The notes under the pieces: model-generated | What the model saw: the letters and a program-made list of their open reading frames with translations, nothing else | Database searches by the model: none | What the model was told of the DNA's origin: nothing | Position numbers and translations under genes: made by a program | Virus record (IMG/VR): IMGVR_UViG_3300028591_000203 | Location: 1-64,000 of that record | DNA length: 64,000 nucleotides | Reading direction: 5' to 3' (one strand) | DNA from: a virus | Shown here: positions 2,399 to 62,742 of the stretch, one piece after another | Layout of the letters: the number at the start of each line of letters is the position of its first letter | Position numbering within the stretch: the first letter of the stretch is position 1

Positions 2399-2437
2399 CG
2401 TATTTAATATTGATGTGATTTATATATTATAATTATG
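2399..2437 (+). promoter_or_regulatory. conserved bipartite phage promoter, copy 1 (CGTATTTAA-N17-TATTATAATTATG)
   Basis: Matches the 6-copy motif with an exact 17-nt spacer. Lies immediately upstream of the RBS of the 2453 gene. Confidence 0.55.
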
Positions 2438-2452
2438 AAAGGAGGGATTTTT

Positions 2453-2893
2453 ATGCAAAATATTGAGATCCCTATCACAAAAAGGGTATTTGAACGTCTC
2501 TGTAAAAGAGATTGTGAAGACCCTAATTGTAATCTTCCTTTCATCTTCCGTGAAAAAGATGAGGAAGAAAACAATACTTTTGATCATGTATTTCTGGTTG
2601 TACATGGTGCAAAAGAAGGAGGAGTTCTCAATGCTTATGAGAACACCATTCAACCAGTTCCAGAATTTATTCAATTTATGAAAAAGAGAATAAATAAATT
2701 GAATAAATTTAAAGAAATTGTTCTTGTTTGCTGTCACGGAGCAGCTCAAGAACAAGTAAAAGGAGTTACTATTCTGAATAAAAGTAACTCTGAAATACAC
2801 ACTACTAATAGTAAAATGTGTGCATATTTCACTGAAGAAGGAGATATGGCATATAGTTTTACTATCAGTGGTATTGATGGAGCTTTTTATTAA
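2453..2893 (+). CDS. hypothetical protein (Cys-rich; VLVCCHGAAQ motif), promoter-cassette gene
   Basis: The ORF track frame starts at 2435, but the RBS AAAGGAGGG sits 7 nt before the ATG at 2453 (MQNIEI). Own promoter and terminator. No recognisable family. Confidence 0.5.
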   Translation: MQNIEIPITKRVFERLCKRDCEDPNCNLPFIFREKDEEENNTFDHVFLVVHGAKEGGVLNAYENTIQPVPEFIQFMKKRINKLNKFKEIVLVCCHGAAQEQVKGVTILNKSNSEIHTTNSKMCAYFTEEGDMAYSFTISGIDGAFY

Positions 2894-2912
2894 GCTCCAT
2901 CATTTTTTTTTT
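2879..2912 (+). terminator. intrinsic terminator
   Basis: ggagctt/aagctcc stem followed by T10. Confidence 0.6.
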
Positions 2913-2955
2913 CTAAAACTTATAATTATTATATTCTTATTAAAGGAGTGATATT

Positions 2956-3264
2956 ATGAATAACTATGAAAAAGCTTTTATGGAAGGATATTTAGATGCA
3001 ATTCAAAGTATTGATGTCCTTTATAATAATGATGCTACTGATTGTGAAGAATGTAGTGAAGATGATTTTGATATGTATTCAGATGATGATTTTGACGAAG
3101 AATTAGATGAAGGTTTTGTAAGTGCCATGAGAGCAGTAATAGATAAACCAAGAAAAACAAATACTAATACTGCTTTAAAGAAAAGAGCTAAAGCACAAGC
3201 TAAATTCGATAAAGCTTTTGAAAAAATGAATAAAGCAGCTGGAGTTAGATATTGTTGTTATTAA
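2956..3264 (+). CDS. small acidic protein with N-terminal MNNYEKAFMEGYLDA motif (EGY-family, putative packaged internal protein)
   Basis: RBS AAAGGAGTG. N-terminus resembles the T4 capsid targeting sequence MKTYQEFIAE. Paralogous motif found in 5 other ORFs. Confidence 0.5.
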   Translation: MNNYEKAFMEGYLDAIQSIDVLYNNDATDCEECSEDDFDMYSDDDFDEELDEGFVSAMRAVIDKPRKTNTNTALKKRAKAQAKFDKAFEKMNKAAGVRYCCY

Positions 3265-3269
3265 TATTA

Positions 3270-3306
3270 ATAACCCTAATGGATTTAATCCATTAGGGTT
3301 TATTTT
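3270..3306. terminator. intrinsic terminator between convergent genes
   Basis: aaccctaatggat/atccattagggtt hairpin followed by TATTTT. Confidence 0.65.
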
Positions 3307-3664
3307 AAAACTTTCCTGAAATACCAATATGTCTTTGTTGCATAGTTCTTCCATCGGAAGAATATCTAGATGTATCTTGAATTGAATATCCTTTAGTTTT
3401 TCCATTATTTAAAATTTCACCTTTATATATCTTAGTACCTTTCTTTTTTTCAAAAATAGTAGTAGCTGCACGGGCTTTAGCTAAATTTCTTTTACGTTGT
3501 AAATCGCTACGTTCAGTTGTTCCCCAACCATGATATTTATCTCTCATACCACCTTTAGGGCCATTCATACCAAGTTTTCTTTGTTTTTCTTTAGTTATTT
3601 GTGAAGTTTCTAAAAATTCAATAGCATCATAATAACCTTCCATAAAAATTTCTTCGTATGTCAT
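3305..3664 (-). CDS. basic protein with N-terminal MTYEEIFMEGYYDAIEFLE motif (EGY-family, putative packaged internal protein)
   Basis: RBS TAAGGAAGTGA precedes the ATG of MTYEEIF; the ORF track starts 3 codons earlier. N-terminal motif shared with 2956 and 31962. Confidence 0.5.
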   Translation of the reverse strand: MTYEEIFMEGYYDAIEFLETSQITKEKQRKLGMNGPKGGMRDKYHGWGTTERSDLQRKRNLAKARAATTIFEKKKGTKIYKGEILNNGKTKGYSIQDTSRYSSDGRTMQQRHIGISGKF

Positions 3665-3732
3665 AGATATCACTTCCTTACTAAAATATTTTAATTATAA
3701 TAAATTAGTTTTGAGTATATATTATATTTATG

Positions 3733-4088: not shown

Positions 4089-6878
4089 ATGAAGATAAAA
4101 TATATTAAACTTGAAAATTTCTTAGGAATCTATGCAGGAATGAATAGAACTTCTGTAGAAATTGATTTCAAGAATAATAAGAATAAAATTATTATTCTTA
4201 ATGCAGCTAATGGTAAAGGAAAGACTACACTACTTTCTATGCTCCATCCATTAAGAGAAACATTTGATGATAGAAAAGATATTGTAATTCCTAATGAGCT
4301 TGGACATAAAATTGTTGATTTGACTCATGAAGGAAATGAATATCATATTGAACACTTTTATGGAAAAAAGAATAAATCATTCATTTCAAAGAATGGCAAA
4401 GAATTAAATGAAAATGGTAATATCAAATCATTCAATGAAATTGCAAAAGAAGAATTAGGAATTGATGGAGATTACTTTAAAATTGGTAGAATTGGATCAA
4501 ATGTATCTAATTTTATTGATCTTAAAGCAACTGAAAGAAAAAAGTATATTACTGAATTTATTCCAAGTATTGATGAGTATCTTGTTGCTTTTGATACTAT
4601 AAAAGAAAAATTTACTTCTTATAACTCTCAGATTAAGCTTATTAAAGGAACTATTGAAAAATATGCTGGATTAAAAGAGTTAGATGAAATTAAAGCATAT
4701 GTCAAGCAATTAACTAAGCAAAATGATGAGTTCCAAACAAAACTTGGAAAGGTTAAAGCTAAAATTGAGAGTTTTTCAGAAGATAAGAAAAAGCTTGAAG
4801 ATGAAATAGTTAACTATATTAATAATGAAACTGATTATCATATTGATAACTTTGAAATGCTTAATAGTATGACAATGTTAATTGATGATGATCTCGATGA
4901 AACAGAAAAGACATTAGGAGTATGGCAAGAAGAATATAATAATTTTCTTGAAAATAATAAAATTTTAGTAACAGAAAATATCCCAGAATATATGAAAAAC
5001 CTTCAAAATAAATTCAATATCAGAAAAGCTAAATTAGAAAATGAATTAGAAACACTTAAAGAATCTCTTAAAGAATGTACTTCTGATTTATTAGCTAATC
5101 AAAATGTAGTTGAAGTTTACAATCAAAAATTAAAGGATATCGATGGAGATTTAAGTGAAGAACAAATCGAAGAATTTAGAAAAGAACTAACAGAGACTAA
5201 TAAATATCTTGAAATTGCAAAAAAACAATTAGAAGATAATAAGAAAAAATTAACTTCCGAAGAATATGAAGAAACAGTTAATTTTTATAATACAAAATCT
5301 ATAGATCCAGTAAATATTCTTACTTATGCAAATACTTTTATTGATATGATAGATACACTTAAATCTCAGTATGATTTATCTACTTTAGAAGGCTATTATT
5401 CTTATATTGAAAACAGTGAAAATATTTTGGATAAGAAAGGAATTAATGCTGAAATAAGTAAATTAGAGCATGACATTCAAGAAAATAATGCTATACTAAA
5501 TAAAATTGAAGGAAGACTAAAACTTGTTAGTGAAACTCTTCCTAAGAGATCTACTAAGTGTACAGATGATACTTGTAGTTTTATTAAAAATGCTTTAGAT
5601 ATTCAGAAGTCAGATATTCCAGAACAAGATAAAAGACTAAAGAAACAAAAAGAATTACAAGAAAAATTAGATGAACTTACTGAATTAAGAGATACTATTT
5701 CAGTATATATTGAAATTGAAAAATTTCTGAATGATACTTATAACTACATTAAAAAGCATTTTCCTGATTATATTTATACAAAGTTATTTAACAGAAAACT
5801 ATTAATTACAAATAATACTGATTTAATAAAAGAATTTAAAATTGATATTCTTTATAATATCTTTACTAAAAAAGATGTCGTTGAAAAATGCGAAATTCAG
5901 AAAGAATCTTTTATGAATAAAATTAGTGTATTTGATATGTCTAAATCATTAATTGATGAATATAAAGAAAATCTTGATAAAGCTAATGATGCAGTTACTA
6001 CATTAAAAGAAAAGATTGAAACATGTAATGAAAAAATTGTAGAAACTGACTTAAAGATTAAAAGCCTTATTATTAGAATTTCACGTTGTGATGAATTCTT
6101 TGAAATTAATAAGAATCTTACTGAATGCACAGATATTTATCATAAACTTATTAAAACACAGACAGAGTTAAGCAAATTGCTTATTGAGTATAAGAACTTT
6201 AAAACTAAAAATAATATCGATGACTTAAAAGATACAGAAGATATGCTTGAAAGAAGTATTAAAGAACTTAAAACAAAACTTGATGAAAATAATACTGCAG
6301 TAAGAATTATTGAAGATAATATGAAGAAGCTTTCTGAAATTGAAAAGGTATATAAGGATGTAGTACTTATTAAGGATGCTTTAGATCCAAAGAAAGGTAT
6401 TCCAGTTGTATTTGCAAATGAATATCTTAAGAATATTGCTACTAAAGCTAATAATCTTCTTAAAATTGCTTATGGTGATCATTTTAAGATTAGATTTAAT
6501 ATTACATCAACTGATTTCCTAGTTGAAGTTTATAAAAGCGATGGAACATTCTTAAATGATATTAAGCTTGCATCTCAAGGAGAAACTTCTTTAACAAATG
6601 TATCTCTTAGCTTAGCAATGCTTGAATGTATGATTAAGAAATACAATATTGTATATCTTGATGAAGTAGACTGTACACTATCGACAGAAAATAGAAAACT
6701 TTTTATTGAAATGCTTGAAAATCAAATGGATTCATTAAATATCGAACAGTGTTTCGTAATTTCACATAATAATGAATTCTATGACAAAAACATTGATTTA
6801 ATTCTTCTTGAAGGTCATGATTGTGATCTAAATGATAAAGATTTCATGGCTGGAAAGAATGTAATTTTTAAATTATAA
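4089..6878 (+). CDS. sbcC: SbcC/Rad50-family recombination ATPase (T4 gp46-like)
   Basis: N-terminal Walker A NAANGKGKTTLLS. Long coiled-coil middle. C-terminal signature SQGETSLTNVSLSLAM and Walker B VYLDEVD. RBS AAGGAGG. Confidence 0.85.
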   Translation: MKIKYIKLENFLGIYAGMNRTSVEIDFKNNKNKIIILNAANGKGKTTLLSMLHPLRETFDDRKDIVIPNELGHKIVDLTHEGNEYHIEHFYGKKNKSFISKNGKELNENGNIKSFNEIAKEELGIDGDYFKIGRIGSNVSNFIDLKATERKKYITEFIPSIDEYLVAFDTIKEKFTSYNSQIKLIKGTIEKYAGLKELDEIKAYVKQLTKQNDEFQTKLGKVKAKIESFSEDKKKLEDEIVNYINNETDYHIDNFEMLNSMTMLIDDDLDETEKTLGVWQEEYNNFLENNKILVTENIPEYMKNLQNKFNIRKAKLENELETLKESLKECTSDLLANQNVVEVYNQKLKDIDGDLSEEQIEEFRKELTETNKYLEIAKKQLEDNKKKLTSEEYEETVNFYNTKSIDPVNILTYANTFIDMIDTLKSQYDLSTLEGYYSYIENSENILDKKGINAEISKLEHDIQENNAILNKIEGRLKLVSETLPKRSTKCTDDTCSFIKNALDIQKSDIPEQDKRLKKQKELQEKLDELTELRDTISVYIEIEKFLNDTYNYIKKHFPDYIYTKLFNRKLLITNNTDLIKEFKIDILYNIFTKKDVVEKCEIQKESFMNKISVFDMSKSLIDEYKENLDKANDAVTTLKEKIETCNEKIVETDLKIKSLIIRISRCDEFFEINKNLTECTDIYHKLIKTQTELSKLLIEYKNFKTKNNIDDLKDTEDMLERSIKELKTKLDENNTAVRIIEDNMKKLSEIEKVYKDVVLIKDALDPKKGIPVVFANEYLKNIATKANNLLKIAYGDHFKIRFNITSTDFLVEVYKSDGTFLNDIKLASQGETSLTNVSLSLAMLECMIKKYNIVYLDEVDCTLSTENRKLFIEMLENQMDSLNIEQCFVISHNNEFYDKNIDLILLEGHDCDLNDKDFMAGKNVIFKL

Positions 6879-6890
6879 GTATATATTATC

Positions 6891-6929
6891 TTAGTGCTAA
6901 TGATATTTCATTAGCACTAATTATTTTTA
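6891..6929 (+). terminator. intrinsic terminator
   Basis: ttagtgctaatga/tcattagcactaa hairpin followed by TTATTTTT. Confidence 0.6.
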
Positions 6930-6945: not shown

Positions 6946-7848
6946 ATGGATAATCAGGCAAAATTTATTAAGAGAATCATCATCGCATCAGTAGTAGGTC
7001 TTATTGTACTATTTCTTAGTCTATCTTCAATGACTAAGGTAGACTCAGGTTATACTGGTGTAAGAGTATTTATGGGTGCTGTGAAGGAGGAAACTTTTGA
7101 TGCAGGTTTCCACCTTAAAGTTCCTTTCTTTGAAAAGGTAGAGAAAGTAAATAACAAGGTGCAGAAGGTAGAAGTATCAGCAGCTTCTACTTCAAAGGAT
7201 CTTCAGAGTGTAAATAGTACATTAGCGATTAACTATCATCTAGCACCTGAGAGTTCTGTATCGATGTATAAAAACATCGGTATGAGTTATGAAGACACAA
7301 TCCTTCAGCCAGCTATCCAGGAAGCAACAAAGTCCGTAATGGCTCAGTATAGAGCTGAAGAGCTTATTCAGAGACGTGGAGAAGTCTCTATCTCTATTAT
7401 GGATGAAATCTCTAAGAAAGTTTCCGATTACGGCATTGTAATCGACGAGTTTAATATCACCAACTTTGGCTTCTCTCAGGCATTTGACGATGCTATTGAG
7501 CAGAAGCTTGTTGCTGAGCAGAATAAAATTAAGGCAGCTACAGAGAATGAGCAGAGAGTAGCTGCTGCAGAAGCTGATGCTGCAGAAGCAAAGGCAAGAG
7601 CTGAAGGTGAAGCTGAATCTGCAAAGATTAAAGCAGATGGTGAAGCCGAGGCATTAAGAATTAAGGCTGAAGGTGAAGCTGCTGCTATTAAGGCAAAGGG
7701 CGAAGCAGAAGCCGATGCAAATAAGAAGATTCAGGAATCTCTTTCTCAGGACGTTCTTACATACAAGCAGATTGAAGCTTGGAATGGTGAATATCCTGAT
7801 GTAATGTCTGGAGATACAGGCAATATTCTTATTGACACCAGAAAGTAA
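6946..7848 (+). CDS. SPFH / band-7 (prohibitin-HflC-like) membrane protein
   Basis: N-terminal TM helix. SPFH core (GVRVFMGAV...QSVNSTLAINYHL...AEELIQRRGEVS). C-terminal Ala/Glu-rich coiled-coil repeats AEGEAE. Codon usage is GC-richer than its neighbours. Confidence 0.8.
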   Translation: MDNQAKFIKRIIIASVVGLIVLFLSLSSMTKVDSGYTGVRVFMGAVKEETFDAGFHLKVPFFEKVEKVNNKVQKVEVSAASTSKDLQSVNSTLAINYHLAPESSVSMYKNIGMSYEDTILQPAIQEATKSVMAQYRAEELIQRRGEVSISIMDEISKKVSDYGIVIDEFNITNFGFSQAFDDAIEQKLVAEQNKIKAATENEQRVAAAEADAAEAKARAEGEAESAKIKADGEAEALRIKAEGEAAAIKAKGEAEADANKKIQESLSQDVLTYKQIEAWNGEYPDVMSGDTGNILIDTRK

Positions 7849-8976: not shown

Positions 8977-10782
8977 TTAATTTATAATATCATTATCAGT
9001 TAATACAATTCTGTCATTAGCAGAAGCAGTTTTTGGAGAAGTTAAATCAATAACTCTTATAAAATCATTTTCAACTAAAGACTTACTAGAATCATATGTG
9101 TCAGATACCCAAGTACAGAAACCATGAGCATAATTTGCATCTGGAATAGCTACAAAGAATCTATGCATGATAGGAGTTCTTCTCTCAGTATCTTCTTTAG
9201 CATATACCTTTAATTCATAAACATGATTTTCAATAGCTTGCCATGCAAGTTCATCATGTATAAAATCAGAAAGAACTCTTACAACCTGATTTGTAACAGA
9301 GAGATCTTCTACAGTAACGGTATACTCATTTGCAGCACAATTCTGTACATTTACAGAAACTACAAACTTCATATCGACATCAAGATCTCTATTATCAGAA
9401 TCTGGTTCGATTGGTTCTGGTTCATTATTAAAGTCTCTACCAGACTTAGCGAATCTCATATCATATCTACCATTAAGACGAACTGCATTAACAAAATATC
9501 TTACACCATTATCCTGAAGAACAAAAGTTGTCTGAGGGATAGACTTATCAAGTTCATACCAAACACCATCGTAAGTTTCTTCCTTATAATACCAGTTAAA
9601 GTTCTCAACTAACTTATAGAATTTATCAGGAATCATGAAGAAACTCCATTCACCTGCTACATCCATATTAGTCTTAAATACCATGCTATCAAGGATACAA
9701 TCAAGTACATTCTTCTTTACAACAATAGTATCTCTAGGATTCATATTAGAGAAAGTAGAATGGAAATTCTTAGAAATCATTGTTCTAAGAGCATTTGGTG
9801 AAAGCTCTTTGATATTTGATTGAACAGATTCACCCATTGCAAAGCCACCATTACCATAATAGATACAAATTCTATCTCTAAATGGAGGAGGACATGGTGG
9901 GAAGAAAGGTGGAACTGGAGGTTCTGGTGGTAATGGACGAGGACAAGGAGGAGGACAAGGAGGAGGACAAGGAGGACATGGATGATGATCAGGATGGTGG
10001 TGATGATGATGTGGTGGTTGATATGGAGGATCATAAGGTGGACATGGAGGTTCAGGTCTAAAATGATCCTTACGATGTGGAGGATATGGGAATGGATGAC
10101 AATCAGGAATTGGACAAGGAGGAGGACAATTATCCTTTCTAGGCTCAAATCTAATTACGTCACCATCATTCTTTGGAACCTTACTATAATCAATCTCAAT
10201 ATCTGTTTCATTATAAGGTGGATAAGGATTTGGAATTCTAAAAGGCTCTTCAGCATATCTAGGCTCTCTAGTTAAATTTTCAAATACATCATACCAAGGA
10301 TTTTTTCTTGGATCACCAATATATCTTGGATCAATATCACTATCTGGAACATGAGCATCAAACTTGTCATTCTTATAGAACCAAGGCTGATAATGATCAT
10401 AAGGGAATGGTGGGAATGGTCCAGGACAAGGAGGAGGAGGACATGGATGAGGCATTGGAGTATCAGGAATCTTTTCTAAGTCAATATATCTCCAACCTCT
10501 TCTACATAAATAAATAAAGTTATCGAGATAGTTTTGAGCTTTATATAAATCTTTGCTTCTATATGTAGCGAAAGACTGTGTTAGCTCAGAATTAGTATAT
10601 AATACTACATCATAGAACACTTTATCGATAAAACGAGGATCTCTACGAGCAGGTAAGTTATGAACTGCCTTTGGAGGGTTAGGATAAGTTGTTTTTGATA
10701 TCTTAACTCTAGCACCATATACGGTAAAGATACCGACATCATAACGATAACATGTAACACTAAATGGCATCATATATATCAA
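8977..10782 (-). CDS. Cys-Pro-repeat / polyhistidine-rich protein (PCPPPPCPGP, CPPPCPIPDCHP, HHHHHHPDHHPCPPCPPPCPPPCPRP) with globular N- and C-terminal domains
   Basis: Composition read directly from the translation. The central ~250 aa are over 40% Pro with regularly spaced Cys and an H6 run. DNA in this segment is GC-richer (ggaggacaaggagg repeats). Confidence 0.5.
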   Translation of the reverse strand: MIYMMPFSVTCYRYDVGIFTVYGARVKISKTTYPNPPKAVHNLPARRDPRFIDKVFYDVVLYTNSELTQSFATYRSKDLYKAQNYLDNFIYLCRRGWRYIDLEKIPDTPMPHPCPPPPCPGPFPPFPYDHYQPWFYKNDKFDAHVPDSDIDPRYIGDPRKNPWYDVFENLTREPRYAEEPFRIPNPYPPYNETDIEIDYSKVPKNDGDVIRFEPRKDNCPPPCPIPDCHPFPYPPHRKDHFRPEPPCPPYDPPYQPPHHHHHHPDHHPCPPCPPPCPPPCPRPLPPEPPVPPFFPPCPPPFRDRICIYYGNGGFAMGESVQSNIKELSPNALRTMISKNFHSTFSNMNPRDTIVVKKNVLDCILDSMVFKTNMDVAGEWSFFMIPDKFYKLVENFNWYYKEETYDGVWYELDKSIPQTTFVLQDNGVRYFVNAVRLNGRYDMRFAKSGRDFNNEPEPIEPDSDNRDLDVDMKFVVSVNVQNCAANEYTVTVEDLSVTNQVVRVLSDFIHDELAWQAIENHVYELKVYAKEDTERRTPIMHRFFVAIPDANYAHGFCTWVSDTYDSSKSLVENDFIRVIDLTSPKTASANDRIVLTDNDIIN

Positions 10783-10828: not shown

Positions 10829-12046
10829 TCATTTAAAATTAGCTCCGATTCTAATTGAAGGAGTTAAAGGCTCGTTCAATTTAGAAGCTTCAAAAGTAGA
10901 ACCTAATTCTTCATTTAAAAGATCTTTAAACATAGATTCAGTAATAAAATCATTTCTTAAAAATGCAATATCTTCTTCTATACCTTCAATATTATAGCTT
11001 TCAAATAGATTTAAAATAGAATTCTTATCTAAAAGCATTATATTTTCCAAAGATTCGTTAACAGGTTGCTGTTCTTGAACATTTTGCTGTGGATTTTGAT
11101 TATTATTTTGCTTTTTATTCTTTTTATCCATAAAGAAGCCTTTTACTTTTTTTCCTACATTAGATATAGCATTTTTTGCTCTTTTAAAAATACCTTGTTT
11201 TTGCTGATTTTGCTGTTGATTTTGATTATTATCATTTGCTGGAGGATTTTGCTGTTGAGTATTATTTGTTTGAGCATTTTGCTGTTGAGTATTATTTGTT
11301 TGAGCATTTTGCTGTTGAGTATTATTTGTTTGAGCATTTTGCTGCTGATTTTGATTTTGATTATTAGCATTTGTTTCATTATTATTTTGTCTTGCAATTC
11401 TATTCTCTGCAGCAGTTGCTAAACGCTTACCTTTGTCAGAATTTGCATCTACTTCATAAGTTTTACCTTTAGCATTGACTCTTTTAATTACTTCTTTTCC
11501 TTCAGGACCATTTTCTCCAGCTTGTTTAGAGCCTAATTGCATACTTTGAGTTTTATTTGTAACTCCATTTTGATCTGCGTATGTAGTAGTCTTTGTAGCA
11601 TTAGCCATTTGGTTATTTGCTTTATTTTGTGATAAAGATATACCTGCTACATTTTTAATAGCACCCATAGTGCCACCGCTAGCTTGAGCCATATTTTTAA
11701 GGTTAGTTCCCATATTTTTAATACCAGTTTGACCACCATTAGCTGTAGCATAGGCATTACCTGCATTATATGCTTTCTTAGCAGCTACGGCTGTTCCTGC
11801 TACTGCAGCACCTGCAGCCAATCCGCCCATTAATTTCTTAAAGAATCCTTCGTTTAATAATAAATTTTGCATATATTCAGTTTTTGTTAAAGGTTCTATA
11901 TCATTAACTTCACAATTTTCTAAATATGCATCATATGATTTTAAAATATAATTTTCGCAAACAGAGATAGTTTTTTGATCAGCTGGATTATCAACATCAC
12001 ACTCGGCTAGTCTAGTTACACATTCTGCCAAAATCTCTAATTTCAT
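10829..12046 (-). CDS. Q/N-repeat plus glycine-zipper protein (NAQTNNTQQQ x4; GGLAAGAAVAGTAVAAKKAY)
   Basis: RBS AAGGAAGGTG is followed by ATG of MKLEIL; the ORF track starts 3 codons earlier. 30-bp tandem repeats at 11220-11345. Ala/Gly zipper segment. Lys-rich middle. Confidence 0.5.
   Translation of the reverse strand: MKLEILAECVTRLAECDVDNPADQKTISVCENYILKSYDAYLENCEVNDIEPLTKTEYMQNLLLNEGFFKKLMGGLAAGAAVAGTAVAAKKAYNAGNAYATANGGQTGIKNMGTNLKNMAQASGGTMGAIKNVAGISLSQNKANNQMANATKTTTYADQNGVTNKTQSMQLGSKQAGENGPEGKEVIKRVNAKGKTYEVDANSDKGKRLATAAENRIARQNNNETNANNQNQNQQQNAQTNNTQQQNAQTNNTQQQNAQTNNTQQQNPPANDNNQNQQQNQQKQGIFKRAKNAISNVGKKVKGFFMDKKNKKQNNNQNPQQNVQEQQPVNESLENIMLLDKNSILNLFESYNIEGIEEDIAFLRNDFITESMFKDLLNEELGSTFEASKLNEPLTPSIRIGANFK
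11215..11345. repeat. 30-bp in-frame tandem repeat (about 4 copies) inside the 10829-12046 CDS
   Basis: ttgctgttgagtattatttgtttgagcatt repeated. Encodes QQQNAQTNNT. Confidence 0.8.
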
Positions 12047-12150: not shown

Positions 12151-13290
12151 AATAGGTTCACCATATTTTTCTAAAGTAGGCATTAATATTCTTTCTAATT
12201 GTAACCTATTCTTACCATCTAAAATACAGCCAGCAGCATATTCATGACCACCGCCACCGTACATTCTAGCAATTCTAGCACAATCGATATCTTCAAGTAC
12301 TCTTCTAAAATTTATACTACCATATTTAAATGATACATTTACAATATATTTAATATTATAACGAATATAAATTTCTTTTCTATTAATAGCTTCTCTAATC
12401 ATATCACAAATTAAAGAAGTATTATCATCACTTCTGATTATAATATATTGGCAATCTGGATGAGGGAAACCATCTTCATCAATATGATCAAGTACTACAG
12501 ACGTCATTAATGCTTTTTGATAATCTCTATTAATTTGATCCATTAATTCTCTTAATATAGTTTTTTCAGTTTTATTGAAATAAAAAGCTAAACCATCTTT
12601 TTGAAGCTGCATTAAAAAGAATTTACTTCTATTCATATGAGAAAATACAAGATTAAGATCCCTTGCAATAATATTATTATTATCTTTCCACTCAAAAGTA
12701 TCCCAATCATGAACATGCTTTAAATAGCTTGAAAGCCATAATTTAACATCTTCAATTTTATCAGCTTCTGCTCCAATAGTTGCCTCTGTCCAAACTCTAG
12801 ATTGATTATTCTTAAAGAAATTAAATAATTGATAACTAGCACAATAAGATAAATCATTATAATATTCAATTTTTGGAAAAAGCTCTTCAACTCTTCCTCT
12901 GAATGTTATTTCACTATCTTCATGATGATCAATAAAGAATATTTTCTTGAATATACTAGATCTACCCTTAGCTGGATCGTTTAATTTAATTGTGAAATCT
13001 CTTAGTGGTTTATAAATATTATCGTAAAAATTTTGTTTTGTAAAATTTAAATCAGTAATAAAAACAAAATCAAATTTTTTTATACCGTCTTCATTATCAA
13101 TATCAATAAAATCTTTAATCTTATAATATTCATCATAACCAATAAATTCTATATCAAATGTAAAATATTTAGAGTTATAAAACTTTCTAAGAGCTAAGGC
13201 ACAACTTACACCATCCAAATCATTATGAGTGAACATTTTTACTCTAACAGTTGTAATATTAGAGATAATCTCTATATCCTTCATAGTCAT
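12142..13290 (-). CDS. DHH/DHHA1-family phosphoesterase (NrnA/RecJ-core-like)
   Basis: N-terminal DHH motifs FTHNDLDGVSCALAL. Further motifs FITD and IDHH. C-terminal DHHA1 GGGGH motif. True start at 13290 (AGGAGG then ATGACTATGAAG) rather than the ORF track's 13368. Confidence 0.75.
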   Translation of the reverse strand: MTMKDIEIISNITTVRVKMFTHNDLDGVSCALALRKFYNSKYFTFDIEFIGYDEYYKIKDFIDIDNEDGIKKFDFVFITDLNFTKQNFYDNIYKPLRDFTIKLNDPAKGRSSIFKKIFFIDHHEDSEITFRGRVEELFPKIEYYNDLSYCASYQLFNFFKNNQSRVWTEATIGAEADKIEDVKLWLSSYLKHVHDWDTFEWKDNNNIIARDLNLVFSHMNRSKFFLMQLQKDGLAFYFNKTEKTILRELMDQINRDYQKALMTSVVLDHIDEDGFPHPDCQYIIIRSDDNTSLICDMIREAINRKEIYIRYNIKYIVNVSFKYGSINFRRVLEDIDCARIARMYGGGGHEYAAGCILDGKNRLQLERILMPTLEKYGEPIKK

Positions 13291-14005
13291 ATCCTCCTGT
13301 ATGATAAAGTTCATTATTAAACTCTCGATCAATTGCAGAAAGAGCTGAAGGCTTATCAAATAAATCAACAGACTTAGATCTATCTACTGGATTCTGAGTT
13401 AATAATTTCAAAATACAATTTTGTTTATCCTCACCCATTTTAATAAATCCATTAGACTCAAAAAATCTTATTTTAGATTCTTCAGCTTTATTAATAACTG
13501 CTTTATTTGCTGAAAGACTCGTTTTTGCCATTTGAAGTAAATCTTTACCAAATCTTAATCCTTGGTATTTTGGATTAATTTCAAAAATAGTAATAATATT
13601 ATGCTCATTTTTACTTTCAACTTCTACTCTAGCAACTTGATTATTAAATTCATCAAAAAATCTATAACCTCTTACTCTAATTCTATATGCTTTTGGAGTA
13701 CCATATTTATCATCATAATAATGATTATAAAAAGTTTCATAACTTTTTCTTGTAAACTCAAGAAGCTCAATAGGTTTCTTAAGATCTTCCATCATAGTTT
13801 TCTTTTTAGCTTTAGCTATTGCTATCTGCTTTGTCATTGGATTTTTAATACCTGCAAATCTACTTTTCTTAACAAATTTAGGCCTAGTTAATGATGGAGC
13901 ATTAACTTGCTGACCATTTTTATGACCTACTAAACCAAATCTAGTCCAAGTTGGATGAGTTGAAGTATAAGTTTTTGGACCACTTCGTTCATTTAAAATT
14001 TTCAT
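13259..14005 (-). CDS. GNAT-family N-acetyltransferase-like protein
   Basis: IFEINPKYQGLRFGKDLL (motif A Q/R-x-x-G-x-G/A) plus FFESNGF. Overlaps the downstream DHH gene by about 30 nt. Confidence 0.45.
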   Translation of the reverse strand: MKILNERSGPKTYTSTHPTWTRFGLVGHKNGQQVNAPSLTRPKFVKKSRFAGIKNPMTKQIAIAKAKKKTMMEDLKKPIELLEFTRKSYETFYNHYYDDKYGTPKAYRIRVRGYRFFDEFNNQVARVEVESKNEHNIITIFEINPKYQGLRFGKDLLQMAKTSLSANKAVINKAEESKIRFFESNGFIKMGEDKQNCILKLLTQNPVDRSKSVDLFDKPSALSAIDREFNNELYHTGGYDYEGYRDYL

Positions 14006-52106: not shown

Positions 52107-52187
52107 AAATTAATTCCTCCTAAAAAGTTTAAAATAATATATGGTAAAGATTCACTTTACCATATATATAATATAAGTTTATTTTTA

Positions 52188-52679
52188 TTAATCAAAATAT
52201 TTACATATAAATAAATTGATATTTTCTTCATTTCCAAAGATTTCTACAAATAATGGAAGAACTTCTTCATCCCAATTACCATCAGCTAATCCACATCCAT
52301 ATTTATAAGGAATTGCTAAAGTACAACCATTTGGAAATGCATGTTTAGCTTCTTCTTTGATTTTATTAAAACAAGTTTTAATTCCTTCAAGATCAGTATG
52401 TCTTTCATTTCTAAGATTTACTCCTCTTTGTGTAAAGCAATTAAGAATTAATTGTCTTTTATTTAATTTTTCATTGTATACTTTACAAGGAATAAATTCT
52501 CCAATAATATCATTATTTTTATTCATTGTACAGAATTGTTTATATGACATTACTGCTTCTGGATACTTGGTAGAAATCTGTGCGGCTAATCCTGCTCCCA
52601 TAATACCAATAGTATTAACCTGATGAGCAATCATATCTACATCTTGTTCTAATATATCTCCTTTAATAAAAGTAACCAT
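52188..52679 (-). CDS. macro domain protein (ADP-ribose binding / ADP-ribosyl hydrolase fold)
   Basis: GDILEQDVDMIAHQVNTIGIMGAGLAAQI matches the macro signature GDI-x-DAIVNAAN-x-L-x-GGGV-x-AI. Confidence 0.6.
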   Translation of the reverse strand: MVTFIKGDILEQDVDMIAHQVNTIGIMGAGLAAQISTKYPEAVMSYKQFCTMNKNNDIIGEFIPCKVYNEKLNKRQLILNCFTQRGVNLRNERHTDLEGIKTCFNKIKEEAKHAFPNGCTLAIPYKYGCGLADGNWDEEVLPLFVEIFGNEENINLFICKYFD

Positions 52680-53209: not shown

Positions 53210-53248
53210 CGTATTAAATAATCATACCAAATATGTATTATAATTGTG
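53210..53248 (+). promoter_or_regulatory. conserved bipartite phage promoter, copy 5 (CGTATTAAA-N17-TATTATAATTGTG)
   Basis: Exact 17-nt spacing. 78-nt leader with a ttggga/tcccaa stem. Confidence 0.55.
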
Positions 53249-53325
53249 GTTGGGAGAACTCTCACATACTTAGCTGACCGACTTTGTATGTTCCCAATAC
53301 AGTATAGGTCAATGGAGGTACTATT

Positions 53326-53754
53326 ATGGTATCCAACATCGTTATTTTCGAACGGTCAAAGGTGGCCGTTCGAGAAGCGCTTCAGGCTGCCAATAAAATG
53401 GCTAGTGGTCTGAAGATGCTTCAGACAACTGATATGCCAGGAGATTATCCTCCTGCATATCTCATTATTTCCGATGAACTGACTGCGCAGACAGTTTGCG
53501 CAATTAGCACTCATCGAAAGAATGATCATTTGGTTTTAAGAGTATGGTCGCCCTTTACCGAGACTATTGTTAATGAAGATGGTAGTCTCGGTAAAGATCA
53601 GCCTCATTACGATTTTGAGTACCGTAACGAGGCTGATTTCGATGGTAATGCCAGAGAGATTGGTCGGTTAATCTGGCATTATAACAAACTCCTGTGGGAT
53701 TGGCATATGACCTATTCGCAGGACTTTGAGTGTTTTGATCTTGACAAAGATTAA
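53326..53754 (+). CDS. hypothetical protein, promoter-cassette gene (about 45% GC)
   Basis: RBS GGAGGTACTATT. No recognisable family. Confidence 0.45.
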   Translation: MVSNIVIFERSKVAVREALQAANKMASGLKMLQTTDMPGDYPPAYLIISDELTAQTVCAISTHRKNDHLVLRVWSPFTETIVNEDGSLGKDQPHYDFEYRNEADFDGNAREIGRLIWHYNKLLWDWHMTYSQDFECFDLDKD

Positions 53755-53759
53755 GTAAG

Positions 53760-53945
53760 ATCAAAGAAAGTTTATACCTTGTACTTTAAAACAAGGAGTT
53801 TCCTGTATACTGCGATAGGGCAACCAAGTAGTATACTGAAAATAAAAGAGGTTTATGCACTGTACCTCTGCGGTGAAAACAGTGAGTTTAAATGATGTGA
53901 TAGAGTAGGCGGTCCTCTATCACATCATTTTCTATATTTTTTTTT
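53760..53945 (+). ncRNA. candidate structured RNA / long 3' UTR ending in a strong intrinsic terminator
   Basis: No ORF in this region. Four hairpins: ccttgt/acaagg, gtatact/agtatac, cactgt/acagtg, and gatgtgatagag/ctctatcacatc followed by T9. Confidence 0.3.
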
Positions 53946-54136
53946 ATAAAAATTCTTTTTAAATATATATTATTGCTATGGTTATAATAACCAAATATCT
54001 TTAGGAGGATTGAAAAATGTACAATTTTTATCATGGACCAGAAGATGAAGAAAACTACAACGATGAGTTAGGTTATCCAGATGAAGATAACTATGGAGAC
54101 GAAGATTAATATAAATAAGTAAGGAGAAAATTTATT

Positions 54137-55273
54137 ATGGCTGATATGAATATTATTAATGTAGGTACTGAGTTTAATATCTACCGTGCAGATTCTGTAA
54201 AGACATTTAAGAAACTTCCAACACAGATTTATAAGATCTGTTTTCAGAAGTTCAAGGGATTCTACCTTGATACTTATCAGGGTCTAGACATCAAAGAGAA
54301 AGTCTATGGTGTCCATCAGAATAAAGTAAATAAAGTGATTAACTCATTTAATCATTTTGAAAGAAGCCTTGGTGTAATCCTGTCAGGAGATAAGGGAATT
54401 GGTAAGTCTCTGTTCTCAAAGATGCTTGCACAGGAGTGTCTTAAGCAGGATATCCCTGTAATTGTGGTAGATGCATGGTATCCTGCAATTGCAGATTTTA
54501 TTGAGTCCATCCAGCAGGAAGTGATGATTCTGTTTGATGAGTTCGATAAGACTTTTGGTGAGGTTAACACTCCTGAAGGATCTGCAACCCCTCAGACAGA
54601 ACTTCTTAGTCTCTTTGATGGTATTTCAACTACTACAAAGAGATTATATGTCATTACTTGCAATGAGCTTAGAAAGCTTAATGACTATCTAGTAAATCGT
54701 CCTGGTAGATTCCACTATCACTTCAGATTTGAGTATCCAACGTCTGAAGAGGTAAAGCTTTATCTTGAAGAAAAGGTTGACCCCAAGTATCATGATCAGA
54801 TTACAGATGTAATCGGATTTACAAAGAGAACTGATATCAACTATGATTGCCTTAGAGCAATTGCTTTCGAACTCAATATGGGTTCAACATTTAAGGAAGC
54901 AATTAGAGATCTTAATATTCTTAATATTAATGACACTTCCGCTTATACAATCAAGGTTTTCTTCGAGGATGGCTCTTCTGTAACTCGTAAGAAGTATAGA
55001 ATGAATCAGGACGACGAGTATGAGAGCAATTGCTGGTTCAGTCCTGATAAGGGAGAAAACGAATTTATCTGCTGTGAATTTACTCCATCAGATATTGCTT
55101 GGGATGAGAAGCTGTTTAAGTATGCTCTTATGCCAGATCAGTTCAAATATTGGTGTGACGAAGATTATTGTAAGGATGATCCTGAACTCTTCAAGTCATA
55201 CAACAACAAGAAGCCTATCTACATGACATTTGAAAGAGACTTTAAGGTAGATAGAATGCACTATGCTCTTTAA
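54137..55273 (+). CDS. classic-clade AAA+ ATPase
   Basis: Walker A GDKGIGKS. Walker B ILFDEFD. Second region of homology with VNRPGRFHYHFRF matching the AAA Arg-finger consensus RPGRFD. Confidence 0.7.
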   Translation: MADMNIINVGTEFNIYRADSVKTFKKLPTQIYKICFQKFKGFYLDTYQGLDIKEKVYGVHQNKVNKVINSFNHFERSLGVILSGDKGIGKSLFSKMLAQECLKQDIPVIVVDAWYPAIADFIESIQQEVMILFDEFDKTFGEVNTPEGSATPQTELLSLFDGISTTTKRLYVITCNELRKLNDYLVNRPGRFHYHFRFEYPTSEEVKLYLEEKVDPKYHDQITDVIGFTKRTDINYDCLRAIAFELNMGSTFKEAIRDLNILNINDTSAYTIKVFFEDGSSVTRKKYRMNQDDEYESNCWFSPDKGENEFICCEFTPSDIAWDEKLFKYALMPDQFKYWCDEDYCKDDPELFKSYNNKKPIYMTFERDFKVDRMHYAL

Positions 55274-60271: not shown

Positions 60272-60310
60272 ACCCCATTACTATAAAAGTAATGGGGTAT
60301 TTTTTTTTTA
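60272..60310. terminator. bidirectional intrinsic terminator
   Basis: accccattact-ataaa-agtaatggggt followed by T11. Confidence 0.8.
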
Positions 60311-61147
60311 TTATTCACCATCTGATTCACTTTCTGGTTGAACTGTACCAACTAAATCTTCTTCTTTTTCAAGACCGAATAATTTAGTAAGGATTTCTAC
60401 ATAAGACTTACCTGCAAGAGATTCTCCTGCTTTAAGACCACCAACATCTGTACCAACTAATGTTGGACGACCCTTTGGAATCTTACCAAATTCACCAAAT
60501 TGTTCAACATCCTTAGTTGTTTCAAAACTTGCATCAAGTAAAATAAGAAGCTTCTTATCTCCATATACTTTTAATACAGTTCCAGGAATTTTTGTTTCTG
60601 GTTTAGTAATAACACCAAGACAACCAAAAATTGGAAGATCTCCTTCTTTAGTCATAAACTCTTTAAGTGCAGTTTCATACTCTTCTAAAGCAGTCTTATA
60701 AGCTTCATACTCTTCATTATACTTATCTATAAGAATTTTCTTCTGAGCTTCAGAAAGTTCATAATTAAATAAACCACTATGGAAGTTTGGCTTCTTAGGC
60801 TCTTCTGGTTTTACAGGACCTTCTGCATAAATAAAAATAAAATCACCAAGTTCATATTCAGAAGGATCAAACTCATCTACATTAAATTCAGAAGGCTTAA
60901 TAACCTCTTTAACTATAATATAGTCTTCTCTTAAACCAAATAAAGCATCCATATTATGAGCTGCTGTCTCAGTAAATTCCTTATAAACATACATACCAAC
61001 TTTAGCAAACTGTAAAAGTCTAAATTTAGCATCAGAAACTAAAATATATTTAGACTTAAGAGTTTCTTCTAAATCTCTTGGGAAAAATGCTTTAACATCT
61101 TCCTTAAGCGGAGTGTCAAAATTATATAAAAGTTTAATTAATTTCAT
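60311..61147 (-). CDS. acidic hypothetical protein, paralog A (shares the FETTKDxxQFGxxGKxPK block with 61218-62066)
   Basis: ORF track. N-terminus MKLIKLL vs MKLVKLL. Conserved C-terminal block. Confidence 0.45.
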   Translation of the reverse strand: MKLIKLLYNFDTPLKEDVKAFFPRDLEETLKSKYILVSDAKFRLLQFAKVGMYVYKEFTETAAHNMDALFGLREDYIIVKEVIKPSEFNVDEFDPSEYELGDFIFIYAEGPVKPEEPKKPNFHSGLFNYELSEAQKKILIDKYNEEYEAYKTALEEYETALKEFMTKEGDLPIFGCLGVITKPETKIPGTVLKVYGDKKLLILLDASFETTKDVEQFGEFGKIPKGRPTLVGTDVGGLKAGESLAGKSYVEILTKLFGLEKEEDLVGTVQPESESDGE

Positions 61148-61177
61148 AAACTATCATCCTTTCTAAAATTTTATTAA

Positions 61178-61208
61178 ACCCGATGATGATTTATATCATC
61201 ATCGGGAT
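61178..61208 (-). terminator. hairpin terminator between tandem paralogs
   Basis: cccgatgatgat-ttat-atcatcatcggg, a 12-bp perfect stem. Confidence 0.55.
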
Positions 61209-61217
61209 TTTAATTAA

Positions 61218-62066
61218 TTACGTAGTAGGATCTGGTTTTGGGTCTGGTTTTGGGTCAGGAGTAGGATCTTCCTCATCAGGTGGAAGTAATTGACCTACTA
61301 ATTCCTCTTCAACTTCAAGACCAAGAGCCTTCTCGATAATTTCTGCAACAGTAAGACCTCTAATAGAGTCATCTTTTGCAAAACCACCAAGAGCCTTAGT
61401 AACCTTAGTTGCAACTTCTTTAGGAAGCTTACCCATAACACCAAACTGAGCTGTATCCTTAGTAGTTTCAAAGGAGAAGTCAGCAATTACATAATACTGA
61501 GTCTCACTAACGATTCTAACAAGCCAACCATACTCTTCATAAGAAGCTTCACCAGTAGTAATAAACTCCTTAACTGCAGCTTCATAATCTTCAAGTTCCT
61601 TAGTATATTCCTTCATAGCAGTATTATACTCATTAAGAGCATCTACATACTCTTGTGGTGTGAAAGAATAACCAGGAGCTGGCTTAGCCATCTTAGGTGG
61701 TTCACCTGGATGCTTTGGACCTTCCTCAAAAACAAAGACATAATCGCCTACTTCATATTCAGCAGGATCAAAACTTTCAAATTCAGAAGGCTTTACAATA
61801 TCAGCAATAACATAAGTGATCTTCTTATCAAAATCACCGATATTACGTACAGCTACTTCTGAGAAATCCTTAATTAAATAAGTCTTAACACCTGCGTGTT
61901 GTAAAAGAGTAAAACGATCATCAGAAATCAAAAGAGACTTCTGCTTCTTTGGAGTTTCAGGTACTTTATCCTTGCTAGAAGGAATTACAACATCTTCAGC
62001 ATTTGGAATTCCTACGATACCAGCTACACTAGATAATGGTTTACTTAAAAGTTTTACTAGTTTCAT
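61218..62066 (-). CDS. acidic hypothetical protein, paralog B; C-terminal PDPKPDPKPDP repeat
   Basis: ORF track. Same architecture as 60311-61147. Confidence 0.45.
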   Translation of the reverse strand: MKLVKLLSKPLSSVAGIVGIPNAEDVVIPSSKDKVPETPKKQKSLLISDDRFTLLQHAGVKTYLIKDFSEVAVRNIGDFDKKITYVIADIVKPSEFESFDPAEYEVGDYVFVFEEGPKHPGEPPKMAKPAPGYSFTPQEYVDALNEYNTAMKEYTKELEDYEAAVKEFITTGEASYEEYGWLVRIVSETQYYVIADFSFETTKDTAQFGVMGKLPKEVATKVTKALGGFAKDDSIRGLTVAEIIEKALGLEVEEELVGQLLPPDEEDPTPDPKPDPKPDPTT

Positions 62067-62090
62067 ATAATATACCTTCTTTCTAAAATA

Positions 62091-62654
62091 TTATTGTTTT
62101 TTATCTTCTTCATCTACTTTAATTTGTCTCTGTAAATCTTCAAAAGAATCTAATATAGTATTTAATTTATTAATTATTGCTTTAAAAATAGCTCTTGTTT
62201 TATCAATATTAACTGTTGCTATACCTTTTTCTAAGAAGAAGTTAATTTGACCTGAAGTTTCTTCAAGAGAAGAGATAAGTAAATTAATAATCTTATGTTG
62301 TTTTTCATTATTAATTTTATCAAAGTTAAGATAGATTTTTGAATTATTCAGAGATAACTTAGTTTTTTCAATTAACGCTAATAGCTTATTAAATTTTTCA
62401 AAATATTGTAATCTTTGATAATTCATGAAGTTTGTTAAATCTTGTTCAGGAGTTGTTCCATCTTTTTCCTCTGGAAATTTCTTATCAGTTGTGCTATCAG
62501 TATCTTCAACATCTAACATTACTGGCGGTGGCGGTGCTGGTTGTTCCATACCTATTTCAGCATTAGGATCACCTTCAGCCATCATTTCTTCTCCTTCTTC
62601 ATTAAAGTACAGATTAAAAAATTTACTTTTACTCAAAGTTATCACCTCTTTCAA
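62091..62654 (-). CDS. hypothetical protein (PAPPPP, acidic)
   Basis: ORF track. Confidence 0.4.
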   Translation of the reverse strand: MKEVITLSKSKFFNLYFNEEGEEMMAEGDPNAEIGMEQPAPPPPVMLDVEDTDSTTDKKFPEEKDGTTPEQDLTNFMNYQRLQYFEKFNKLLALIEKTKLSLNNSKIYLNFDKINNEKQHKIINLLISSLEETSGQINFFLEKGIATVNIDKTRAIFKAIINKLNTILDSFEDLQRQIKVDEEDKKQ

Positions 62655-62703
62655 CTATTAATAACTATAAAATCTTGTTTGCTGATGTTAAAAATTTATG
62701 ATC

Positions 62704-62742
62704 CGTATCTAATTAAGCTATTAAATACATATTATAATTGTG
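62704..62742 (+). promoter_or_regulatory. conserved bipartite phage promoter, copy 6 (CGTATCTAA-N17-TATTATAATTGTG)
   Basis: Exact 17-nt spacing. 97-nt leader. Confidence 0.55.

Follow-up and report, generated by a model that had tools for sequence, protein, structure and literature searches.

Six two-part repeats in an uncultured AR9-like jumbo phage are probably early promoters of single, exchangeable accessory genes

The first 64,000 nucleotides of the IMG/VR virus record IMGVR_UViG_3300028591_000203 (hereafter the window) carry six copies of a two-part repeat, each preceding one short gene. We consider it likely that these repeats are two-part early promoters of the type found in the jumbo phage AR9, read by the RNA polymerase (RNAP) packaged in the virion, and that they form a boxed, immediate-early subclass driving single, self-terminated and exchangeable accessory genes, here termed cargo. 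The promoter type itself is already known from AR9; three aspects appear new, namely the upstream box, which is locked in position and conserved as a second element, the link of this box with immediate-early kinetics, and the promoter-anchored exchange of cargo. The sequence match, its register, the genomic positions, the terminators, the cargo swap and the cargo diversity come from the present analysis, and the start sites, the early timing and the independence from protein synthesis come from the work of others on AR9.

The initial annotation had described six plus-strand copies of an element (C/A)GTAT(T/C)TAA-N17 followed by a downstream block invariant over 13 nt. A pattern scan recovered all six at the annotated positions, on the plus strand and upstream of co-oriented genes (see the table), with the spacer exactly 17 nt long in 6/6 copies and the 13-mer TATTATAATTRTG exact in 6/6. 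The upstream block as first written fits only two of the six, and position 7 had to be relaxed to A or T in order to retrieve them all. In this form the pattern (C/A)GTAT(T/C)(A/T)AA-N17-TATTATAATT(G/A)TG has exactly six matches in the window against 0 expected, and MGTATYWAA-N17-TATTATAATTRTG likewise returns exactly six sites and none in 100 dinucleotide-preserving shuffles. When up to one mismatch is tolerated, the 13-mer alone gives 8 matches for 1.9 expected. The upstream block reads CGTATTAAA in four of the six copies, and the consensus of the window copies is AAATATATATTAT-AATTGT-G. Both the 17-nt spacer and the flanks vary from copy to copy, conservation being restricted to the two blocks, which indicates that the repeats are not the trace of a recent duplication.

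If the final G of TTGTG is taken as the putative +1, TATTAT lies at -12..-7 and the box at -38..-30, 17 bp apart, the extended form of the box being (AAC)CGTATTAAA. The spacing is specific, as a search of IMG/VR for CCGTATTAAA-N17-TATTAT returned 63 stretches, 20 of which carried the early core and a purine start, against 26 stretches and a single early core for the N16 control. TATTAT agrees with TATAAT at five of six positions, so that the -10 element and the 17-bp spacer are those of a sigma-70 promoter; the -35..-30 hexamer, ATTAAA, is not, and the conserved CGTAT lies just upstream of it. The earlier statement that the element does not resemble a sigma-70 promoter was thus right for the sequence and wrong for the geometry. 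It is nevertheless very improbable that the repeats are host sigma-A promoters, with TATTAT or TATAAT as -10 element, used by the host RNAP before the phage enzymes take over. The bacterial geometry (hexamer at -35..-30, 17-bp spacer, TATTAT at -12..-7) and a perfect TATAAT embedded 3 nt downstream are what such promoters would offer, but ATTAAA matches TTGACA at only 3/6 positions, there is no TG extension, CGTAT falls outside the -35 hexamer and a generic sigma-70 scan of the window does not single out the six sites. Furthermore, the same promoters are mapped early starts in AR9, where transcription of the genes behind them is, according to passages of reviews, independent of the host RNAP.

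AR9 early promoters have been mapped by differential RNA sequencing (dRNA-seq) and primer extension and share the consensus AAATATATATTAT-(6N)-G+1 (PMC5312081); being active without protein synthesis, they were assigned to the injected virion RNAP (PMC5312081). The six window copies differ from the AR9 13-mer AAATATATATTAT by 0-3 mismatches and all carry the N6-G extension. Using a position weight matrix built from 38 AR9 promoters (Table S2 of the AR9 study), five of the six score between 13.5 and 23.7 bits; across the window the same matrix yields 15 matches of at least 12 bits, five of them boxed copies, with 14/15 intergenic and situated 15-157 nt upstream of a co-oriented gene. All six boxed copies are intergenic, 16-154 nt from the start codon of a co-oriented gene. 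The simple core TATATTAT-N6-G occurs 15 times on both strands against 3.1 expected. The six copies are a subclass of this larger promoter family, TATATTAT-N6-G, and not a stand-alone motif: the window promoters form two groups, six boxed and about ten unboxed, the latter before conserved replication and transcription genes and including cores at positions syntenic with AR9 P152, P154, P157 and P226. The initial annotation had recognised neither the relation to a known promoter type nor the unboxed copies. It had been suggested that the element might serve a phage multisubunit RNAP; the base-for-base, in-register match to mapped AR9 virion-RNAP promoters and the homologues of both AR9 polymerases encoded here argue for this assignment.

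Judged by its proteins, the source of the window is an uncultured, distant AR9/PBS1-like jumbo phage encoding subunits of both a virion RNAP (vRNAP) and its non-virion counterpart (nvRNAP). A cultured phage could be ruled out as the source, as GenBank phages gave no nucleotide match (megablast, 12 kb) and the closest RNAP proteins are about 33% identical. AR9 homologues were found for 21 window proteins, with gene order partly kept, among them the vRNAP subunit g264 (44%), nvRNAP beta' g154, the nvRNAP subunit gp226, a primase, SbcC and the DNA polymerase. The window proteins include a DNA polymerase that is a divergent member of family B, as well as a prohead protease and a fragment of RNAP beta'. 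The beta' fragment is about 33% identical to its counterparts in AR9, BpSp, Listeria phage LPJP1 and Staphylococcus jumbo phages. The g264, g154 and gp226 homologues are what a genome with a split beta/beta' virion RNAP and a second, non-virion RNAP should contain, and the vRNAP that includes the product of 1144-2352 on the minus strand would be the enzyme reading these promoters.

The upstream box is also present in AR9, at the same 17-nt spacing, in 10 of the 39 listed early promoters. Nine promoters of AR9 Table S2 have CGTAT(T/C)xAA exactly 17 nt upstream of TATTAT (g047, g048, g069, g108, g120, g169, g190, g234 and g253), and the tenth, P292, which is cut by the genome end in the table, reads CGTATCAAA-N17-TATTATAATTGTG once the ends are joined, its downstream block TATTATAATTGTG being identical to that of the window. 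The AR9 GenBank record annotates the 13-nt core only, and the box is mentioned neither in the main text of the AR9 transcriptome paper (PMC5312081) nor in passages of reviews from 2020 and 2026, a comparison that leaves the 2016 AR9 genome paper aside; of the 98 papers containing the box string, none among the 10 ranked highest concerns phages.

In order to compare the kinetics of boxed and unboxed promoters, we re-analyzed the published AR9 Table S4, taking fragments per kilobase per million (FPKM) for the first gene behind each promoter. The median 5'/20' FPKM ratio is 1.16 for boxed genes (n=10) and 0.21 for unboxed ones (n=28; Mann-Whitney p=3e-5), and the contrast persists when the boxed genes are set against the seven unboxed genes that do not rise after 20 min (p=7e-4). 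Expression peaks at 5 min for 5/10 boxed but 0/28 unboxed genes (hypergeometric 252/501,942, ~5e-4), and the eight genes called 'pre-early' in the AR9 paper (g048, g109, g111, g120, g169, g235, g289 and g292) all lie within boxed units. AR9 being the one related phage with data, the box there marks the earliest kinetic class. By analogy, the early expression initially proposed for the window genes gains support, and the cargo genes are probably among the first to be expressed after infection. We also observed that the boxed promoter of AR9 g190 (transcription start site (TSS) at 152042, minus strand) serves an HNH homing endonuclease gene that is located within an intron of g189, a late vRNAP gene, this mobile element thus having its own immediate-early promoter.

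By homology with AR9, the vRNAP would be packaged in the virion, injected with the DNA and directed to the six promoters, with transcription starting at the last G of TTGTG. The box would serve as an upstream recognition element that the vRNAP itself, or a specificity factor delivered in the virion, would contact, or that, less likely, an early regulator would bind. In either case these units would fire, and then level off, before the others, which would define an immediate-early class. Each boxed promoter would drive one short gene, with a leader often opening with a stem-loop or a Shine-Dalgarno sequence and with an intrinsic terminator of its own, and the transcribed part from about +4 to the terminator would constitute an exchangeable cargo slot, relatives keeping the promoter and swapping the gene.

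The box might be the operator of a phage-encoded early regulator, either a repressor that shuts the units off after minutes or a MotA-like activator replacing -35 recognition, the core still being read by the vRNAP; we regard this as rather doubtful. The AR9 boxed transcripts stop rising after 5 min whereas the unboxed ones rise about five-fold by 20 min, a pattern that active shut-off would give, and the box is a separate element, 9-13 nt long, whose distance from the core does not vary. In this it resembles the MotA box of T4 middle promoters. However, AR9 early transcription, including that of the boxed P104-type controls, proceeds with no need for new protein synthesis, which makes an activator produced after infection unlikely; no candidate regulator has been identified, and the strict -35-like geometry across phages with about 33% identical RNAPs fits a contact by the polymerase or a specificity factor at least equally well. 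A stronger version of the vRNAP hypothesis is possible, albeit tentative: the CGTATTAAA box could be a true -35-like element read by a virion-delivered vRNAP specificity factor, defining an ancient immediate-early regulon shared by AR9 and its uncultured relatives, in which the 40-bp promoter anchors a gene-capture slot (+4 to terminator) for accessory genes, candidates for counter-defence or takeover included.

All six boxed units are monocistronic and each ends with an intrinsic terminator, as had been proposed. Five of the six promoters abut the 5' end of a divergent gene, and promoter 2 alone has a terminator directly upstream (21071-21101); immediately after cassettes 5 and 6 comes an unboxed promoter that serves the following gene. 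Upstream of the cassette genes the AR9-type late motif AACA-N6-T[AG] is found in 0/6 cases, whereas at least 11 other window genes have it. The leaders had been described as 50-150 nt long and often hairpin-bearing: measured from the predicted start they span 16-154 nt, and a fold clearly better than that of shuffled sequence is seen in the 154-nt leader alone (z = -3.2). A stem-loop pairing the +1 nucleotide is predicted in 21/43 boxed leaders from the window and metagenome loci L006-L133, against 33% of shuffles, a modest enrichment (p=0.03); another four have a Shine-Dalgarno sequence at +2. The 16-nt leader of cassette 1 opens with a Shine-Dalgarno sequence. Stem-loops and Shine-Dalgarno sequences at the 5' end are known stabilisers of mRNA in Bacillus. 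In cassette 6, an in-frame TTG at 62798 offers an alternative start.

Exchange of cargo was seen at the site of cassette 4. A same-species contig (L026) retains the 29245 cassette. In a 306-kb relative (L031) the boxed promoter is kept at the same place, between the 28488 homologue and the prohead protease, where it drives an unrelated 108-aa gene of 44.8% GC. Nucleotide homology between the window and this relative extends up to 29212 (TSS+3) and resumes at 29728, just past the terminator, with unrelated cargo in between (29213-29727). This promoter-anchored swap was compared at one site only, that of cassette 4. The large relatives examined were IMGVR_UViG_3300043093_000048 (265,109 bp) and IMGVR_UViG_3300032030_000005 (305,865 bp), both of which have other genes in the 2453 region; searches for relatives through the dCMP deaminase and YbiA-like proteins, at the sites of cassettes 5 and 6, found only distant phages. 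In the 265-kb relative and in contigs L027-L030, the protease adjoins the 21320 homologue in the other orientation, and most of the 22-29.6-kb block of the window is missing. Set against L027-L031, the segment 21943-29700, bounded by the g261 homologue 21320 and the prohead protease, is a hot spot of rearrangement: relatives differ by an inversion of the protease gene, and several kb, two cassettes among them, are either present or missing.

Beyond the window, exact-pattern scans returned 15 IMG/VR stretches and 30 stretches from JGI metagenomes, and no match in GTDB genomes, which therefore give no host clue. Window and metagenomes together provide 45 distinct boxed promoters and 34 distinct cargo proteins of 42-158 aa in 29 families, with a median leader of 97 nt. 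Outside the two blocks fixed by the search, conservation extends to AAAC before the box and to A at +2. The median GC of the cargo in this survey is 0.386 against 0.285 for the loci, the cargo being higher in 33/34 cases.

These exchanges raise the question of whether the promoter is mainly a recombination substrate, a mobile regulatory cassette comparable to the PromoterEarly Stem-Loop elements (PeSLs), composite terminator/promoter motifs that mediate indels in hyperplastic regions (PMC4122927), its identity being kept by gene conversion or shuffling. Replacement boundaries at TSS+3 and at the terminator end, the 29 cargo families fronted by one promoter, the rearrangement among relatives of the region from 21320 to the protease gene and the near-identical terminator hairpins at 21071 and 25054 would all agree with such a role. 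On the other hand, conservation in two blocks with free spacer and flanks is the signature of functional constraint and not of recent copying, AR9 has the box too, in the same register and correlated there with kinetics, and since a terminator stands directly upstream in 1/6 copies only, the composite PeSL layout is absent. We thus find it unlikely as the main function, although it is compatible, as a secondary role, with the promoters being read by the vRNAP. The hairpins in question, at 21071-21101 and 25054-25084 (GGATAACCC[A/T]TTATGGGTTATCC), follow unrelated genes, and a related CCAACCCATTTATGGGTTGG lies at 26192-26219; recurring terminator hairpins of this kind could be recombination substrates.

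The base composition of the cargo was found to be less uniform than initially reported: four genes, and not five, are GC-rich, in a window of 29.4% GC and not about 27%, and the remaining two are not. The four GC-rich genes have C+G at four-fold sites of 0.24-0.43, including the three highest values in the window, and their 5' and 3' untranslated regions (UTRs) reach 27-42% GC against an intergenic median of 23%, so that the shift in composition spans the whole transcribed unit, starting at the promoter. Codon adaptation of highly expressed genes is ruled out as its cause by these four-fold values and GC-rich UTRs, and a conserved trait of the boxed class by the AR9 boxed genes, in which GC at third codon positions (GC3) is 0.12-0.21. 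GC3 is raised outside the cassettes as well. Other genes across the window, among them the five so marked in the table, follow a second codon regime, in which ATA is absent, AAR/GAR/CAR codons take G (0.5-0.76) and four-fold sites take T (up to 0.86); these genes include the homologue of AR9 g153, the most highly expressed late virion gene of AR9. The regime looks like an expression-linked codon bias, distinct from the composition of the cargo. Transfer RNAs or known RNAs posing as GC-rich genes were ruled out, as ARAGORN detected no tRNA and Rfam no family at gathering thresholds in the window. Independent acquisition of the cassettes, as first envisaged, is thus supported for part of the set, namely by the four atypical genes with their UTRs, by the one precise replacement in L031 and by the occurrence of the 29245 family in unrelated Firmicute prophages.

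For none of the six cargo proteins was a Pfam or PHROG match obtained, and AR9 has no homologue of any of them. The absence from known families that had been noted holds in this sense, although the 29245 protein belongs to a large, conserved and unnamed phage and prophage family. A search of 5.8 billion sequences gave 2-3 relatives for the 25688 and 53326 proteins, and the 2453 protein belongs to a small unnamed family of 9 cluster representatives. The 29245 protein has 196 homologues (57-96% identity, ~112 aa) with invariant residues W6, R9, H10, Q16, D50, P57, Q61, P72-V73-I74, G88, E90, F95, F97 and W100. These homologues sit in early regions of Firmicute prophages, near genes for RecU, a Tad2-like protein, a methyltransferase and an integrase, and one is found in another GroEL-bearing phage contig behind a related CCGTA...TATAAT...GTG promoter. 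In some homologues the domain is fused to an RNAP alpha-CTD (PF03118; prophage contigs L023/L024/L025, gene 6001-6543). The AlphaFold model of the 29245 protein is confident (predicted local distance difference test, pLDDT, 95) and matches generic alpha/beta folds only, and a profile search of PDB sequences found nothing relevant. Assignment of the family to Csx20/CARF2/UzuA was rejected: the PADLOC matches are weak (E 6e-4 to 7e-3), otherwise unsupported and not backed by fold searches. The 108-aa cargo of L031 (5433-5960, = L017) has a sub-threshold match, not otherwise supported, to the Pfam STIV_B116-like family PF08960 (E=4e-4, 20.8 bits for a cut-off of 26). The STIV_B116-like family includes viral ring-nuclease anti-CRISPRs. 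The host-takeover or anti-defence function envisaged for the cassettes did not find positive evidence, the PADLOC and Pfam matches being marginal and unbacked by fold searches. For the rest, the initial view of the repeats as phage-RNAP promoters of early, separately packaged and in part foreign accessory genes largely stands.

Several observations weigh against our interpretation of the repeats as an immediate-early vRNAP promoter class. The start site and the timing are taken over from AR9, although its RNAP subunits share only about 33-44% identity with those encoded here, and nothing points to a particular protein as the reader of the box. The kinetic link in AR9 is a correlation between 10 and 28 genes in one dataset, and late promoters before some of the unboxed genes could inflate the contrast. 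The metagenome copies were retrieved by exact pattern, which in itself accounts for part of the conservation of their blocks. Samples of two other phages, 42 kb of Listeria phage LPJP1 and 28 kb of Staphylococcus phage AH12, contain unboxed cores, but we found no boxed copy in them. Finally, the boxed promoters of AR9 often drive operons and their genes, as stated above, are not GC-rich, indicating that the pattern of single, GC-rich cassettes is specific to the window lineage.

A box common to AR9 and to a lineage with about 33-44% identical RNAPs provides a handle on how the injected multisubunit RNAPs of jumbo phages recognise their promoters, one that can be tested in the culturable AR9. 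The 39-nt pattern is also a search key for immediate-early accessory genes of uncultured jumbo phages in metagenomes, among which host-takeover and counter-defence functions can naturally be sought. In addition, cassette exchange is documented here with base-level boundaries in a phage group whose genome plasticity has been little studied.

Table. Boxed and unboxed early promoters, cassette units, polymerase genes and genes with a second codon regime or a late motif in the window. Start sites (+1) are predicted, and leader lengths are counted from them.
Feature	Coordinates	Strand	Details
Boxed early promoter 1	2399-2437	+	CGTATTTAA-N17-TATTATAATTATG; +1 at G2437
Boxed early promoter 2	21109-21147	+	AGTATTAAA-N17-TATTATAATTGTG; core identical to AR9 consensus AAATATATATTAT-N6-G; +1 at G21147
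Boxed early promoter 3	25496-25534	+	CGTATTAAA-N17-TATTATAATTGTG; +1 at G25534
Boxed early promoter 4	29171-29209	+	+1 at G29209; kept at the orthologous site of the 306-kb relative L031
Boxed early promoter 5	53210-53248	+	+1 at G53248
Boxed early promoter 6	62704-62742	+	CGTATCTAA-N17-TATTATAATTGTG; +1 at G62742
Cassette 1 unit	2437-2912	+	16-nt leader; open reading frame (ORF) 2453-2893, 146 aa, GC 32.0%; terminator hairpin and U-run 2876-2912
Cassette 2 unit	21147-21321	+	16-nt leader; ORF 21163-21297, 44 aa, GC 25.2%; bidirectional terminator 21274-21321
Cassette 3 unit	25534-26227	+	Structured 154-nt leader; ORF 25688-26158, 156 aa, GC 41.6%, ORFan; terminator 26192-26227
Cassette 4 unit	29209-29722	+	36-nt leader; ORF 29245-29592, 115 aa, GC 48.6%, GC3 0.61; ~100-nt 3' UTR; terminator 29691-29722
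Cassette 5 unit	53248-53945	+	78-nt leader (GC 42%); ORF 53326-53754, 142 aa, GC 42.7%, near-ORFan; ~140-nt 3' UTR; terminator 53894-53945
Cassette 6 unit	62742-63176	+	98-nt leader, predicted stem-loop from +1; ORF 62840-63106, 88 aa, GC 37.8%; terminator 63135-63176
Unboxed early core	3712-3732	+	Upstream of ORF 3791
Unboxed early core	6876-6896	+	Upstream of 6946-7848, homologue of AR9 g181, SPFH
Unboxed early core	14817-14837	+	Exact AR9 consensus; upstream of gp226 homologue 14875-16374; AR9 g226 also has an early promoter
Unboxed early core	22005-22025	+	Exact consensus; upstream of GC-rich module 22066-25047
Unboxed early core	39561-39581	-	Upstream of DNA polymerase gene 37454-39535(-); counterpart of AR9 P152
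Unboxed early core	40051-40071	+	Upstream of nvRNAP beta' gene 40135-42066; counterpart of AR9 P154
Unboxed early core	43674-43694	+	Exact consensus; upstream of 43709-44332; position matches that of AR9 P157, right behind the helicase gene
Unboxed early core	52161-52181	-	Upstream of 49926-52106(-), homologue of AR9 g068, vWA
Unboxed early core	53960-53980	+	Exact consensus; upstream of AAA ATPase gene 54137-55273; directly after cassette 5 terminator
Unboxed early core	63189-63209	+	Upstream of dCMP deaminase gene 63225-63638; directly after cassette 6 terminator
Virion-RNAP subunit gene	1144-2352	-	44% identical to AR9 g264
nvRNAP subunit gene	14875-16374	+	AR9 gp226 homologue
nvRNAP beta' C-terminal subunit gene	40135-42066	+	~33% identical to AR9 g154; Pfam RNA_pol_Rpb1_5
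Gene	8977-10773	-	Late motif
Gene	10829-12046	-	Late motif
Gene	13259-14005	-	Late motif
Gene	21320-21943	-	Late motif
Gene	22498		Late motif
Gene	30663-31286	-	Second codon regime; late motif
Gene	31349-31888	-	Second codon regime; late motif
Gene	32595		Late motif
Gene	39658-40005		Second codon regime; late motif
Gene	42168		Late motif
Gene	44962-45924		Second codon regime
Gene	49926-52106	-	Second codon regime
Gene	52188-52679	-	Late motif

Other features of the window concern its late promoters and neighbouring genes. The late motif AACA-N6-T[AG] begins 40-62 nt 5' of the start codons of the genes so marked in the table, at least 11 in number and mostly at -40 to -50, a count given with no statistical control; it suggests that the late-promoter type of the nvRNAP may be conserved in this distant lineage. 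The GC-rich module 22066-25047 behind an unboxed early promoter comprises three genes (38-46% GC; phrog_4074, phrog_1735 and phrog_2018). Its 698-aa protein shares about 48% identity with proteins from Clostridioides and Bacillus Tsarbomba-like phages and matches 489 phage records, mostly of Salmonella and Klebsiella phages, with no homologue in AR9. The 20% GC gene at ORF 27-521 contains imperfect in-frame repeats of about 45 nt coding for KKYYEEHKEEINE-like units.

Among known systems, the closest to the six repeats are the early promoters of AR9/PBS1 (Lavysh et al. 2017, PMC5312081), which have the same core AAATATATATTAT-N6-G+1 and stand before early genes including the orthologous DNA polymerase, nvRNAP beta' and gp226. 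The CGTATTAAA box at 17-nt spacing recurs in a quarter of them, with P292 identical over TATTATAATTGTG, whereas the published consensus and the 13-nt GenBank features cover the -10-centred element only and the main text of PMC5312081 and the review passages describe neither the box nor its link with the 'pre-early' genes. The window lineage differs from AR9 in that its boxed copies have -6..-1 fixed as AATTGT, each serve a single gene and are followed by cargo of elevated GC. The early promoters of phiKZ, phiR1-37 and 201phi2-1 similarly consist of an AT-rich conserved element of about 10 nt near -10 with a conserved start about 6 nt further downstream, and an injected multisubunit vRNAP reads them, but their sequence is different and no bipartite form appears in the review passages. 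Jumbo-phage RNAPs have no sigma homologue according to the passages of a review.

Bacterial sigma-70/sigma-A promoters share with the repeats two blocks 17 bp apart, the downstream one at -12..-7 and the upstream one over -35, but here the upstream block is CGTATTAAA and not TTGACA, and the host RNAP is not required in AR9. T4 middle promoters likewise combine a -10 element with an upstream box at fixed distance that replaces the -35 element and defines a temporal class, through the phage-made MotA and AsiA acting on the host RNAP. Unlike this MotA-dependent middle class, the boxed class is the earliest and, in AR9, independent of protein synthesis. Finally, the PeSL cassettes of T4-like phages (Arbiol 2010, PMC2839356; Comeau 2014, PMC4122927) resemble the window cassettes in that a conserved early promoter tags small variable genes, mostly of unknown function, and in that breakpoints of indels or replacements between relatives coincide with the regulatory motif, as found here at one site. 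PeSLs are, however, composite terminator and promoter motifs that serve the host sigma-70 RNAP in hyperplastic regions, whereas in the window the promoter alone is conserved, the polymerase would be viral and 5/6 cassettes stand singly at strand-switch points beside core genes.

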